A stretch of DNA of 64,000 bases from an uncultured Chlamydiae bacterium (GCA_963696295.1 CAVOJR010000001.1:2912001-2976000), one strand, 5' to 3'. Counted from the first letter of the stretch, positions 38,160 through 45,049 are shown. Program-made: numbers and translations. Notes: generated by a model not told the origin, from the sequence alone.

Positions 38160-39322
38160 TGAAAGCGGCCATTTTGAAAGCGGGGCGGGAAAAATCTGTT
38201 CTGCAGCGCCATCCCTGGATTTTCTCCGGAGCCATCGACAAATTGCCCAAATTTGAAAACGGCGATTTTTTGCCCCTGCAAACCCAGGATCGAAAACATT
38301 TGGGCTTTGCCTATTTCAACCGGAATTCTAATATTATCGGACGAATCGTCTCCTTCGATCAAACAGAACCCCTGGAAGCGATCCGCAAGAACCTGCGAGA
38401 GGCGATCGAACTGAGAAAAGGGTGGTTTTCTTCCTCCGCGACGAATGCCTACCGGCTGGTCAACGGGGAGGGGGACGGCATACCGGGGCTGATCGTCGAT
38501 AAATATGATAAAACTTACGTTTTGCAGCTGACGACGATGGGGATGGACCGTTTGCGTTCCTGGATTGTGGAGCAGATCGTAGAGCTTTGTCGCCCCAAGA
38601 CTATTTTTGAAAAATCGCGCCTGCCCGCCCGCCTGGAAGAGGGGCTGGCCGATCAGGTCGGTCTTTTATGGGGCGAAGAGGTGGAAAATGTGGAAATTCA
38701 GGAAAACGGCCACCGTTTTATGGCTGGTATCGTCGAGGGGCAAAAGACCGGCTTTTTTTTAGATACCCGCGAGATGCGCGCTTTAGTGCAGCAGTTTGCC
38801 AAAGGGAGGCGGGTGCTCAATTGTTTCTCCTATTCGGGGGGCTTTAGCGTCTATGCCGCGAAAGGGGGCGCTGCCGCGATTAGAAATGTCGACTGTTCGG
38901 AGCGGGCTATGGAGCTTGCGCGGCAAAATATGGCCCTGAACGAGATTGAGATTGAGCAAAATTTTGTCGTCGATGATGTCTTTACCTATTTGCAGGATCA
39001 CGCCATCGATGAGAATCTGGTCATCCTCGATCCGCCGGCGCTTGCCAAGAAGCGGGGGGATCTTAAAGGGGCTTACCGGGGCTACCTGCACATCAATCGC
39101 CTGGCGATGCAAAAGATGCCGCCAAACTCTTATCTTCTGACCTGTTCCTGCTCCTATCACATGGATGAAACGACCTTTCAAAAGATTATCTTTAAGGCAG
39201 CTCAAGCGGCCGGGCGCAGTGTGCGCATCCTAAGCCGGCACCGGCTCGCTGTCGATCACCCGATCAACCTGTTCCATCCGGAAGGGGACTATCTTAAAAG
39301 TCTCTTTTTGCAATTAACCTAG
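38159..39322 (+). CDS. rlmI: RlmI-like rRNA m5C methyltransferase
   Basis: HPWIFSG, RLVNGEGDGIPGLIVD, GQKTGFFLD, VLNCFSYSGGF, ILDPP. Confidence 0.9.
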   Translation: MKAAILKAGREKSVLQRHPWIFSGAIDKLPKFENGDFLPLQTQDRKHLGFAYFNRNSNIIGRIVSFDQTEPLEAIRKNLREAIELRKGWFSSSATNAYRLVNGEGDGIPGLIVDKYDKTYVLQLTTMGMDRLRSWIVEQIVELCRPKTIFEKSRLPARLEEGLADQVGLLWGEEVENVEIQENGHRFMAGIVEGQKTGFFLDTREMRALVQQFAKGRRVLNCFSYSGGFSVYAAKGGAAAIRNVDCSERAMELARQNMALNEIEIEQNFVVDDVFTYLQDHAIDENLVILDPPALAKKRGDLKGAYRGYLHINRLAMQKMPPNSYLLTCSCSYHMDETTFQKIIFKAAQAAGRSVRILSRHRLAVDHPINLFHPEGDYLKSLFLQLT

Positions 39323-40414
39323 TGAATCAGCTTTAATATTTTCAATCGAAACCTGCAACTTGATTTGATGTAATTCCTTTTGGATCAGGCCTCCTTTATC
39401 GGCGCGGATCTCCCAAAAGTAACCCTGTCCAAAACTTCCCCCTTTAATCAGGGTGGCATCGGTAGCGGTGACTGGGTGGTTCAGCGGGTTGGAGCCTAGG
39501 GCTTGTGAGGTTAAAATCAGTTTGCCGGGCAGGTAATCGCAAACATATTTGCGGATGTTTTGCTCTTCAAAGGCGTTGTCCGCAAAGTATCTGATAGGCG
39601 TGTAGCTTACGAAGAGATCGACATTTTTCGCGAGCAGTTCTTTTAATTCTTCGTGAGATTGCTCAGTACCTTCGACATAATCCCTGTTTTGAAAATAGGC
39701 GGGGGCGTTCTTATCCAGGGTGGCTAAACCGCCAATCCCGAGGATACGGACGTTTTTCACATCGATAGTGGCTAAATTCAAATATCCTGAGGCGAATTCT
39801 TCATCGAGGCTTTTGATCACATCGAGATTTTCAAACGGCCCGGGGACAATGATGATTTTCAGGCCAGATTTTTTTAGGCGTTTAAAGTGGGAAATTTTAT
39901 CCAGCAGGGCGCTTTTGCCTTTTTCGATGAGTTTGAGTATTTTTTTGGCAGATACGGCAGTTATCTCTTTAGAATCATCCTTCTCAAAACTGGCTATGAA
40001 TTGCTGGATATCGGAGAAAGCTTCCTGGGAATTGAATTCTTCATTGACGTGCTGAAAGGCATGGCGGTAAGCGCTTTGCTCAGCCTGATTTAAAGGATTT
40101 CCAAATAGACTAGTCAGGACGACCAGATCGGCCCGTTTCTCATTCGCATAGTCTAATAGCTTTTCTAACCTCTCCCAGTCTTCATTGACATTCGAGGCGT
40201 AGATGAGGTTAACCCCTTTTAGCGGAGGGGGTTCTGGAATGTAGTCATCGTCCAAATCCTCTGCGGCTTCAATCTCCTCGTATCTCTCAATCGTATACGC
40301 GCGAGGCAAAGCCGTGAAGACTTCCTCTTCCTCTTCGCAGATCCAATAATACAACAGAGTCGCCAAGATAAAAAGGAGAGGCGCGAGATAAAGGGTGTTG
40401 ACTGTGGCAAGCAT
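39314..40414 (-). CDS. Membrane-anchored protein with degenerate metallophosphoesterase-like fold
   Basis: N-terminal TM, acidic linker, then beta-alpha segments matching calcineurin-like phosphoesterase motif positions but without the metal ligands. ATG 40414 preferred. Confidence 0.7.
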   Translation of the reverse strand: MLATVNTLYLAPLLFILATLLYYWICEEEEEVFTALPRAYTIERYEEIEAAEDLDDDYIPEPPPLKGVNLIYASNVNEDWERLEKLLDYANEKRADLVVLTSLFGNPLNQAEQSAYRHAFQHVNEEFNSQEAFSDIQQFIASFEKDDSKEITAVSAKKILKLIEKGKSALLDKISHFKRLKKSGLKIIIVPGPFENLDVIKSLDEEFASGYLNLATIDVKNVRILGIGGLATLDKNAPAYFQNRDYVEGTEQSHEELKELLAKNVDLFVSYTPIRYFADNAFEEQNIRKYVCDYLPGKLILTSQALGSNPLNHPVTATDATLIKGGSFGQGYFWEIRADKGGLIQKELHQIKLQVSIENIKADSLG

Positions 40415-40427
40415 GATTAACCTGAAG

Positions 40428-40463
40428 TTGACGATTTTCACCGGGAGTAGTGAAAATCGTCAA
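40428..40463 (-). promoter_or_regulatory. Perfect 14-bp intergenic stem-loop between the actin-like gene and the downstream gene
   Basis: TTGACGATTTTCAC-N8-GTGAAAATCGTCAA. Confidence 0.7.
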
Positions 40464-40475
40464 TGGATTCAAATA

Positions 40476-41741
40476 TTAAAGAGTCGTCCAGTTTTGGTTT
40501 TTGAGGCTACGGGAGTAATCCTCGGCACCTTTTGCGACGATGCTTCTTGGGTCAGTTTCGCCAAAGGCTTTCAAATTAAGCACTGTGACTTCATAACCAT
40601 CGATGCGTAAACCCTCTTCAATGGCTTTATCCAAACCTTCCACTTGACCTTGGAAACCGGTCAGGGCGACGGTTTTTGGATGAACACCATCATAACCTCT
40701 TAATACTTTGCCGATGGTGCTGACAGCGTCATGGGCAACGGGACGGGAAGAGGCGTCGAGCGATTTACCGACTCTCACTTTACGGGGCTTTCCTTGGATG
40801 TAGAGGTCGATCAGCACAGGCTTAATCGCTTCCGGGGCGTTATAGCCGGAAATAAAGGCGTGCTTTTCCTTAATTTGATTGGCTTCTCTTTCTGAAATAT
40901 CGACATTGGCGTGTTCTTTAAGTTTTTTCATCAACTCAAGAGTAGCCTGGTTACCTGCAAAAGAGAACGATTTCATCCCTTTCGTATTGGAGTCGTCCTG
41001 GTCAAAAATATAGACGTCGCCGGTACCTGCGCCGATATCGCAAACGATGATAGCGCCTTGTGTGCGTTTTAGCACGTTCATCAGGTAGTGGCCTGTAAAC
41101 ACAGCTTCGGAGCGGATCATAAAGCGGTTGTCATTGCTCTTGTTTTTGTTTACCACGACGGAGGCGATGTTTTGCAGAATTTCATCGTATCTTTGCCCGG
41201 CTTCGCAAGGTTTGGCAAAGCAAAGATCCAGAGGTAAACCAGAAGCGAGGAAAGGCTTCAGACAGTATTCAATATTGAGTCTGAGAACGGCGATTTCGAG
41301 TTCGCTGTAGTCGCCGCCTTTTTTCGTTTTGACGGGATAGTGCATTTGGGTTGAGCGTCTCAGGATATCAAAATCATCATTTGAGAGTTGCTTGTTTTGG
41401 AGCAGAGTCTCAATCTGATCAAAGAAAATATAAGGGATTTGGGCTCCGTTTACATATTCTTCCTGCAAGGGCAATTTGTGCGTTTTTTGAAAGTTAAGAA
41501 CATAGTTAATGGAACTTTCATTATTTTTGGCAAACCAGATCAAACTGCTAGTGCATTTGATGGTGATTGGTTTGCTTGTGTATTGAAATTTCTCTTCATC
41601 ATTTGGATCATAACTTTTTCCAAATGCAGTAACTTCGCAGTGAGAAGTACCAATGTCAATCCCCAAACTAATGCGGTCATAGACATCTTTTTTTTCTTCC
41701 TGCTTTGACGAGCTAGTCAATTTCATTAATGAGTTAAACAT
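40476..41741 (-). CDS. Actin-like ATPase, MamK-like
   Basis: LGIDIGTSH, RSEAV, CDIGAGTGD, AGN, IKEK, QGKP, LTG..GL, DP..VAKGA; GGAGG RBS before ATG 41741. Confidence 0.88.
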   Translation of the reverse strand: MFNSLMKLTSSSKQEEKKDVYDRISLGIDIGTSHCEVTAFGKSYDPNDEEKFQYTSKPITIKCTSSLIWFAKNNESSINYVLNFQKTHKLPLQEEYVNGAQIPYIFFDQIETLLQNKQLSNDDFDILRRSTQMHYPVKTKKGGDYSELEIAVLRLNIEYCLKPFLASGLPLDLCFAKPCEAGQRYDEILQNIASVVVNKNKSNDNRFMIRSEAVFTGHYLMNVLKRTQGAIIVCDIGAGTGDVYIFDQDDSNTKGMKSFSFAGNQATLELMKKLKEHANVDISEREANQIKEKHAFISGYNAPEAIKPVLIDLYIQGKPRKVRVGKSLDASSRPVAHDAVSTIGKVLRGYDGVHPKTVALTGFQGQVEGLDKAIEEGLRIDGYEVTVLNLKAFGETDPRSIVAKGAEDYSRSLKNQNWTTL

Positions 41742-44461: not shown

Positions 44462-44535
44462 CAATTAATTTACAATTTGATAATAAAATGTTATTAATAT
44501 CTTAAATAAGAGGGGAAAATAGGAAAGGATAAAGG

Positions 44536-44560
44536 AAAAAGGAGGCGGAATCCGCCTCCT
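44536..44560 (-). terminator. Intrinsic terminator after paralog E
   Basis: AGGAGGCGG-AAT-CCGCCTCCT plus U-tract. Confidence 0.85.
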
Positions 44561-44572
44561 ACAAGGAATAAA

Positions 44573-44965
44573 TTACAGCAATGTAATTGGGAATGGGGAG
44601 TAGAGGTTGATATAATCAACAACTCTTTGAATAACTGGGCTAGATACGTGCTTCCAGCCTAAGTTTTCAATACCCTTAACAATGAAATCTGGTGGTGTTT
44701 CGCTAAATGTGCGAGCCACGACTTGTCTTGCCAACAAACCGCCGACGCAATAAGCAATACCTTCAGCAAAATCTGAAAGTTCTTTTTTCATTTCTGTGCT
44801 GATTTTTGTCGCGTCGAAGGATCTGTTAACAACGCCATTCCATGTGGTATTGAAACCCGTTGCGGCCATTCTACCAACGGAAGTTACTGTTAAACCTGCT
44901 CCATAAAGACTAGCGCCATACGCAGCGCCCCAACCTGCTACATTTAAAAAACTATTAACGGACAT
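44573..44965 (-). CDS. Tandem paralog E (130 aa, most diverged)
   Basis: MSVNSFLNVAGWGAAYG...RQVVARTFSETPPD...YSPFPITLL. Confidence 0.9.
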   Translation of the reverse strand: MSVNSFLNVAGWGAAYGASLYGAGLTVTSVGRMAATGFNTTWNGVVNRSFDATKISTEMKKELSDFAEGIAYCVGGLLARQVVARTFSETPPDFIVKGIENLGWKHVSSPVIQRVVDYINLYSPFPITLL

Positions 44966-45020
44966 ATTATTCTCCTTTTTTTGGTTTATATTCGACTCAC
45001 TTCGAATCGATTAAGCGGTA

Positions 45021-45049
45021 ATCATATCAAATCAAATATTAATAATCAA
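45021..45049 (-). promoter_or_regulatory. Putative promoter for paralog E
   Basis: TTGATT-N17-TATGAT. Confidence 0.6.

Follow-up and report, generated by a model that had tools for sequence, protein, structure and literature searches.

A likely new actin from the MamK/BeeR side of the fold, with a pseudo-enzyme partner, in an uncultured Chlamydiae bacterium

The actin-like gene and its partner gene

We analysed a stretch of 64,000 nucleotides (hereafter the window, with positions counted from its first letter) from an uncultured Chlamydiae bacterium (GCA_963696295.1 CAVOJR010000001.1:2912001-2976000), whose genome assembly (G000) comprises 3.43 Mb in two contigs and is 97% complete. Between rlmI (38159-39322, plus strand) and capA (45094-46047, minus strand) lie seven open reading frames (ORFs), all on the minus strand, as the original prediction from the sequence had described, and all with intact open frames. 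Two of them are large and encode an actin-fold ATPase and a phosphoesterase-fold protein, referred to below as the partner; the other five are small paralogs. The features of the two large genes were:

39314..40414, minus strand: partner gene of 366 amino acids (aa) if started at ATG 40414, in a frame open as far as GTG 40441
40428..40463, minus strand: perfect 14-bp inverted repeat between the actin stop and the partner start, with no U tract
40476..41741, minus strand: actin-fold ATPase, 421 aa from ATG 41741; the open frame extends to GTG 41753 (425-aa ORF)
41775..41804, minus strand: promoter-like TTGACA-18-TATAGC, with a GGAGG ribosome site between it and ATG 41741; read by eye and missed by the promoter scan

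The actin gene probably starts at ATG 41741. Its product had 24 relatives at 56-76% identity, after which the matches dropped to 27%, where the match was a BeeR. Across all 25 sequences, D33/G35/T36 (phosphate 1), E216 (connect 1), D239/G241/G243/T244 (phosphate 2), K295/E296 and G366 were invariant; the adenosine and connect 2 motifs are present as well. The structural model (predicted local distance difference test, pLDDT, 87.4) displayed the four-subdomain actin fold, with residues 1-21 at pLDDT <50; in five members of the family, 21-41 residues precede phosphate 1. Foldseek matched the model to actin-fold structures throughout, with TM-scores (TMt) up to 0.80, in the order BeeR (E 4.5e-20, 16% identity), MamK (E 2.3e-19, 18%) and MreB, and the best sequence-profile match was MamK (E 1.4e-8). 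The scores against the family models lay far below their cut-offs: 59.2 bits vs 400 for MamK (NF040964; 56.4 and 50.5 for relatives), 54.2 vs 530 for BeeR (NF053558) and 23.8 vs 293 for MreB (NF010539). The spacing from phosphate 1 to the catalytic Glu was 184-185 residues in all five members measured, compared with 127-139 in 15 MamK-like, BeeR-like and MreB sequences, and corresponds to an insert of about 48 aa in the first half of the protein. A quick tree grouped all 25 sequences in a single clade with a very long branch, separate from 13 MamK-like, two BeeR-type and two MreB sequences; with branches of this length the sister family cannot be named from the tree.

Because the protein fails the MamK and BeeR models, carries the insert and has 24 close relatives, we regard the actin as a family of its own. 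By fold it sides with MamK and BeeR, and it belongs to neither family, so the "MamK-like" label first given to it holds for the fold and fails for membership. The ESM Atlas returned generic actin clusters. No magnetosome family was present among the neighbours of the locus, and a magnetochrome search of G000 gave no match, though its controls were silent too. A canonical MreB is encoded elsewhere in G000 (C1:593309-594286). The actin gene ranked at the 94th percentile of codon adaptation.

The family is rare. Scans of 400 Chlamydiota genomes for the actin, the partner and the small protein, which left one genome (G005) unscored, found the actin in two genomes, G000 included, and the partner, searched for by itself, in one; in two families searched, the actin was present in 0 of 73 and 1 of 8 genomes. 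The scan of genome contigs gave one locus and missed a second actin-bearing genome (G271), so it was not exhaustive. Sixteen of 301 Planctomycetota genomes matched at E<=0.001, strongly only G410 (1.5e-217), a metagenome-assembled genome that is the single genome of its class; five of the other 15 matches were checked and proved to be three MamK, one BeeR-like and one MreB. A scan of metagenomes added two 1.6-kb contigs that carried no neighbour genes. We also observed MamK-like or BeeR-like actins in 14 of the 301 Planctomycetota genomes (L027-L040), among them a BeeR-like one (L028) at 378 bits.

The partner probably starts at ATG 40414. In its model, an N-terminal hydrophobic helix is followed by a disordered acidic linker (37-72) and a phosphoesterase core. 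The Foldseek match was 2yvt (E 1.7e-10), and the closest folds were aq_1956 (Z 17.8) and TT1561 (Z 17.5). The Pfam model PF14582 (Metallophos_3) scored 22.1 bits, under its gathering cut-off of 28.2, and searches of PDB sequences with partner profiles found nothing real. An intact PF14582 member (L057) carries the motifs SDFH, GD, GNMD, H and GHAH, and at the matching strands the partner has SNVN, TSL, GPFE, SYTP and TSQAL, having lost the metal ligands DxH, GD, GN(H/x)D, H and GHxH; motifs I-II were aligned by a weak hhalign match (probability 0.9%), and III-V were matched to L057 by eye. The His of motif IV survives in three of the 11 rows of the family alignment (A5). It is well supported that the partner is a dead enzyme, a phosphoesterase fold without its metal site.

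The N-terminal helix reached a Kyte-Doolittle peak over 19 residues (KD19) of 1.97. A hydrophobic helix precedes the core in five of 12 partner homologues as called (KD19 1.9-3.7), and some of the helix-less calls may be truncated; the G410 protein leaves no room for a helix, and P0039 has a long polar N-terminus. No basic residue stands before the helix in these five, in keeping with an N-out/C-in topology. The fraction of Asp and Glu in the linker was 0.33 in the partner vs 0.04-0.21 in the other four helix-bearing homologues; within the partner, the linker is the only strongly acidic part. The MamJ-like acidity is thus local. The core is well conserved (50-66% among homologues), and the helix and linker are not. 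The proposed "dead-enzyme membrane anchor" was thus right about the degenerate phosphoesterase and weaker than presented for the membrane helix and for the acidity, which is not conserved.

Linkage of the actin and its partner

Between the two genes, the inverted repeat folds into a hairpin with a minimum free energy of -26.4 kcal/mol (40400-40490; z -4.06), which none of 200 shuffled sequences equalled. It is probably a stabiliser or an attenuator of the mRNA.

For seven of ten partner homologues, the longest source contig had the same size in bp as that of an actin homologue (chance of at least one match 0.029). The matched sizes are 31,148, 11,389, 9,508, 9,348, 4,318, 3,909 and 2,684 bp, and on the contig of 2,684 bp actin and partner must adjoin. 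An eighth pair is probable, with contigs of 4,416 and 4,408 bp under the same source label; neither of the remaining partner contigs (2,005 and 1,652 bp) has room for both genes. The pairwise identities of actin and partner were correlated (Mantel r 0.92, p 0.0002; with G410 left out, r 0.83, p 0.0014), and random pairing would not give such parallel divergence. Equal-sized contigs and parallel divergence together indicate that the pair is a real unit. Among the 24 actin relatives, seven were paired and one probably so, the G410 partner stood on another contig, no partner was found for G271, nine lay on contigs of 1.5-2.7 kb, and five were unmatched.

G410, the one Planctomycetota genome with a strong actin match, also encodes a partner (E 2e-78). 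The search for partner homologues scored 8,000 candidates and missed this protein, so it is weak for distant clades. Directly upstream of the G410 partner homologue, on contig C70, we observed a gene (L022 14833-17127, minus strand) for a 764-aa protein with a metallo-beta-lactamase (MBL) fold and two domains that bind cyclic nucleotide monophosphates (cNMP). Prediction of an actin-partner complex gave scores of 0.27 and 0.00 vs a mark of 0.32, which is no evidence either way.

The small-protein array and its surroundings

The five small paralogs lie upstream of the actin gene on the same strand, together with a decayed sixth unit that the original prediction had overlooked when it counted five copies. 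The features were:

41826..41846, minus strand: intrinsic terminator closing the small-gene array (9-bp stem, U8 tail)
41852..42286, minus strand: small paralog s1, 144 aa (ORF calls; s1/s2 junction in runs X1 and X2)
42362..42796, minus strand: small paralog s2, 144 aa; promoter TTTACA-17-TATAAT at 42856-42884; weak hairpin at 42336-42352 towards s1
42939..43330, minus strand: decayed sixth unit with its own terminator (42939-42957); no start codon seen
43423..43857, minus strand: small paralog s3, 144 aa; terminator at 43393-43415
43933..44373, minus strand: small paralog s4, 146 aa; promoter TTTACA-17-TATAAT at 44433-44461
44573..44965, minus strand: small paralog s5, 130 aa, the most divergent copy; promoter-like site at 45021-45049; terminator at 44540-44560

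The paralogs are 59-95% identical (tblastn), and G000 holds no further strong copy elsewhere by the same search. Gly and Ala make up 19-24% of their residues vs 13% in the two large genes. An AAGGAG ribosome site precedes all five, compared with 145 of 2,606 called genes genome-wide, and their codon adaptation ranked at the 88th-100th percentile (s5 at the 100th) against a 14-gene reference set, to which the low GC content at their third codon positions may contribute. With the promoters, these values bore out the Gly/Ala-rich composition and the strong expression signals first noted for the array.

In the direction of transcription the order is s5, s4-s3, the decayed unit and s2-s1. Each of s5, s3, the decayed unit and s1 ends in a strong terminator, s4 and s2 in a weak hairpin; sigma-70-type promoters (11/12 match) precede s4 and s2. 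The terminator at the end of the array and the separate promoter in front of the actin gene were present as originally stated. The s4-s3 block is a duplicate of the s2-s1 block, with 91.8% identity across 1,118 bp. The copies have a mosaic structure: s2 does not differ from s4 in the last 201 aligned columns and does so at 31 of 104 in the linker. The duplicated blocks and mosaic copies indicate duplication with gene conversion. The small paralogs are real, separately transcribed and recently amplified. An assembly artefact was considered and rejected, as the differences between copies amount to 5-41% and contigs of two DNA runs (X1 and X2) reproduce the s1/s2 junction exactly. In a third run (X3), one contig at depth 3 joins the region upstream of s4 to a start of the s1/s3 type, a weak sign that the array varies between strains. 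The decayed unit contains a 107-bp tandem repeat (3.0 copies, 95%, 43005-43328) of a fragment that resembles the C-terminal half of a divergent paralog (tblastn E 0.003-0.016; hidden Markov model, HMM, E 0.04). It was rejected as a centromere or a clustered regularly interspaced short palindromic repeat (CRISPR) array, since it is without spacers and encodes a paralog-like fragment.

A word search for the small protein recovered only the copies of G000. The full HMM scan gave nine matches, six of them credible homologues at 24-41% identity to s3; P0047 and P0048 (2,788 and 1,830 aa, repetitive) were dropped as spurious. Common to the family are two helices, the first a weakly hydrophobic one of Gly/Ala type, with a polar linker between them whose length varies, and a motif resembling P-x5-G-x3-LGW-x3-SP. 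The proteins are basic and amphipathic, with KD19 peaks of 0.7-1.6, mostly under the usual threshold for a membrane span. No family in Pfam, NCBIfam or PADLOC fits them, all leads in the ESM Atlas were below 0.8, and PHROGs gave one weak unnamed match in three of 11 members. The suggested resemblance to GvpA or Reb found no support: in Pfam, which we take to hold models of both GvpA and RebB, neither three copies from the window (E<=1) nor the six homologues (E<=0.5) gave a match. Among the 400 Chlamydiota genomes, the only other match was a single copy in G277, near a contig end, with an AAGGAG site. Imperfect direct repeats follow this lone gene up to the contig end (L025 13770-14032), and further copies may lie beyond the break.

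The runs X1-X3 cover the locus region in short pieces only; short contigs of two of these soil runs match the actin gene and the s1/s2 junction without difference. In G000 the motifs of RpoB, RpoC, GyrA, GyrB, DnaK, SecA, GroEL, EF-Tu and FtsK stand in open stretches far too short for the lengths that we presume for these proteins, and about nine other marker genes are whole. Examples of broken markers are at C1:2147910-2150527, C1:2998197-2999881 and C1:256006-258188, and the type III export-gate gene is also in short pieces. These pieces most likely reflect assembly indels, so frame breaks and pseudogene calls in G000 are unsafe as biology. Close homologues are labelled Parachlamydiaceae and Waddliaceae; the one with the Waddliaceae label is encoded in G271, which belongs to the same order as G000. 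The host is therefore an environmental member of the Chlamydiales. Two other genomes of the family of G000 keep rlmI and have different genes after it; the actin, the partner and the small protein were not found in either. Rfam had no match at the locus.

Elsewhere in the window we observed a full-length serpin (9802-10980, plus strand; 330 bits) downstream of a CAAX-protease-like gene and DUF7499 (8924-9805, plus strand, is listed alongside); effector-like genes for an OTU-like cysteine protease (21989-24169), a Ser/Thr kinase (16686-18410) and a HEAT-repeat protein (58747-61467), all on the minus strand; and ORFs of 1,327 and 1,257 aa (4075-8058, minus; 24320-28093, plus) without a Pfam match at E<=1e-4. 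An AAA ATPase of the ATPase_2/DUF234 type (36178-37602, minus strand) matches the PADLOC candidate PDC-S27 over its full length (E 4e-89); a PDC-S27-like ATPase is absent between nudix and DUF423 in G401. An ORF at G000:C1:248728-249147 is a tandem 18-aa repeat.

Interpretation and comparison with known systems

It is likely that the locus encodes a new actin from the MamK/BeeR side of the fold with a pseudo-enzyme partner. An actin fold with intact motifs, in a family of its own, is co-inherited with a pseudo-phosphoesterase and shares its orientation, with a hairpin between the two genes. We propose that the core is a two-gene operon of this actin and the phosphoesterase-fold protein without a metal site. 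The actin would polymerise with ATP like MamK and BeeR, the hairpin would make it more abundant than the partner, and the partner would act as a dedicated filament adaptor. In helix-bearing lineages, the partner may hold the filament at the inner membrane through its N-out/C-in helix, and in lineages without the helix it may be a soluble regulator. The job of the pair would be that of an accessory scaffold beside a normal MreB rather than core division. For the proposal as a whole, namely ATP-driven filaments, tethered or regulated by the partner at the inner membrane, in an accessory role beside MreB, we see the chances as evenly balanced.

Several observations weigh against this proposal. 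The proteins aq_1956 and TT1561 are also degenerate, so the loss of ligands may predate the link with actin. The pairing was deduced from the exact equality of source contigs in bp, and for five actin homologues, whose contigs span 6-49 kb, no partner of matching contig size turned up. In G410, actin and partner lie on different contigs, and the partner, without a hydrophobic helix, follows the gene for the MBL-fold, cNMP-binding protein. In G271 (91% complete, 420 contigs), the actin has unrelated neighbours and no partner matched at E<=1. Moreover, parallel divergence shows co-inheritance and not contact.

The small genes form a separate, strongly expressed and amphipathic family, probably associated with membranes and not a required part of the system; they would have stood beside the pair for some time in the lineage of G000, where tandem duplication and gene conversion have recently amplified them. 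Such a separate layer is supported by the promoters and terminators of these genes and by the lone copy in G277. The broader reading, in which filament, membrane tether and small protein are one system and the filament positions the small amphipathic protein as a mass-produced coat or cargo, is a minority view in our estimate. It would entail an undescribed intracellular or envelope structure made from three new parts, with the dose of small protein tuned by the expanding and contracting array, which we hold to be similarly doubtful; the organelle of filament, tether and small protein that the original prediction envisaged is possible at the same low level. In its favour, P0046, a small homologue at 28% identity, agrees in source and in single contig size, 9,348 bp, with the nearest actin, P0002 (76%), and the partner P0032 (chance about 0.018), which makes it probable that a second organism has all three at one locus. 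None of the three families was found in the two other genomes of the family of G000, and the actin and the small genes are both high in codon adaptation. Against it, five of the six small homologues match no actin contig size, two of these five being on contigs of 12.9 and 48.6 kb. The lone copy in G277 stands beside rnc in a genome in which no actin was found, G271 and G410 have the actin and no small-protein match, a terminator separates the array from the pair, and adjacency in a sister lineage may be plain inheritance. The adjacency on which the link was first based has thus gained one further case and met three genomes that speak against it. Independent distributions, named at the outset as grounds for refutation, were not found for actin and partner, which are co-inherited.

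Alternatively, the partner could be a ligand-binding regulator (of a nucleotide or cyclic nucleotide, for example) or an enzyme of altered chemistry, and the pair a module for signalling or metabolism, whether or not it forms long filaments; we consider this unlikely. Conservation of the core and not of the helix and linker, the phosphoesterases as closest folds and the position of the G410 partner directly after the cNMP-binding protein are compatible with this idea. However, the partner keeps no metal ligand of intact PF14582 members, the cNMP-binding gene has no tblastn match in G000, and the nearest relatives of the actin form filaments.

It is just as improbable, by our estimate, that type III secretion delivers the small proteins to host membranes, with the array amplified for dosage or diversification and the actin pair a mere neighbour; this could be true together with the actin-partner proposal. 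Residues 2-21 are uncharged with at least five Ser, Thr or Asn in 12 of 12 homologues vs 32 of 2,606 genes (by a criterion set post hoc), G000 has a type III export-gate gene, and both the mosaic copies and the low-depth X3 contig with its alternative junction would suit diversification. Nevertheless, the uncharged N-terminus coincides with the conserved hydrophobic helix, which explains its composition. Chlamydial Inc proteins are recognised by a bilobed hydrophobic domain of 40-60 aa, and the small proteins have instead two weak segments split by a variable polar linker and no long hydrophobic domain of the Inc kind. A mobile-element or defence cassette, either a ParM-type partition system (actin and adaptor, with the 107-bp repeats serving as its centromere) or an anti-phage module occupying a variable slot, would fit the patchy distribution, the different genes after rlmI in G401 and G206 and the PDC-S27-like ATPase nearby, and is nonetheless very improbable, as the actin, partner and small-protein families had no match in 72,556 plasmids, viral contigs or PADLOC, the repeats encode a paralog remnant 1.3 kb off behind a terminator, and the partner has a membrane helix and no DNA-binding domain.

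The actin-partner pair can be set against several known systems. What is known of the chlamydial cytoskeleton concerns mainly MreB and bactofilin. MreB-RodZ and ParM-ParR also combine an actin-like gene with one dedicated accessory gene; the present pair differs from them in the fold of the adaptor, in being chromosomal and in that MreB is encoded separately. The fold of the partner is that of aq_1956 and TT1561 (PF14582; PDB 2yvt, 1uf3), which have degenerate motifs as well; the partner differs in scoring under the Pfam cut-off, in a larger helical insert and in the membrane helix present in part of its family, and it is tied to an actin gene, unlike three intact PF14582 loci that were inspected.

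In the literature, where coverage of subscription papers was thin, we found neither this actin family nor a second chlamydial actin described, and no account of an actin adaptor with a phosphoesterase fold. A large actin survey (10.1101/817700) may have clustered an early member of the family without naming it, and the accessible part of a paper on a predatory planctomycete (10.64898/2026.10.26.761892) reports a lokiactin homologue and does not mention MamK. As in MamK/MamJ (PDB 5ljv, 5jyg; PMC10653835, in the portion available), an actin gene whose best sequence-profile match is MamK stands beside a candidate adaptor gene; however, identity to MamK is 18% (59 bits vs 400), and connect 1 reads SEA in place of xEP. 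MamJ, as far as the source describes it, is an acidic repeat protein, whereas the partner is a folded phosphoesterase domain with acidity that is not conserved. Mad28, in the same partial account (PMC10653835), is likewise a divergent MamK-fold actin, with xExx at connect 1, and has Ser in phosphate 2 where D239 is present in 25/25 of our family. Saltatorellin and the planctomycete MamK-like actins (10.1101/817700, accessible part) resemble the actin in being a second actin beside MreB in a bacterium of the Planctomycetota-Verrucomicrobiota-Chlamydiota (PVC) group, near MamK; 13 planctomycete MamK-like sequences, a set outside which saltatorellin itself fell, lack the insert and form another clade, and the MamK cut-off was passed by all three that were tested.

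A second actin family, strongly conserved, spans the Chlamydiota and at least one lineage of Planctomycetota, as a new branch of the MamK/BeeR/saltatorellin radiation, which has already given an unexpected filament architecture in BeeR. If the small-protein array belongs to the system, it would point to an undescribed chlamydial structure. Both actin and partner are ordinary to express, so the filament structure and the role of the adaptor are directly testable. The closest parallel is BeeR itself (Verrucomicrobiota; PDB 8r2n; PMC11929497, accessible part), described as a three-stranded tubular filament with a disordered N-terminal extension of 30-50 aa. It is the top Foldseek match of our actin and likewise comes from a PVC host; our actin has a probably disordered N-terminus of about 21 residues, and no magnetosome family was seen among its neighbours. 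The two differ in sequence (16% identity, 54 bits vs 530), in clade and in the insert of about 48 aa in our actin. In the available part of that paper, neither a function nor a partner gene is stated for BeeR, whereas the actin presented here comes with a co-inherited candidate partner.

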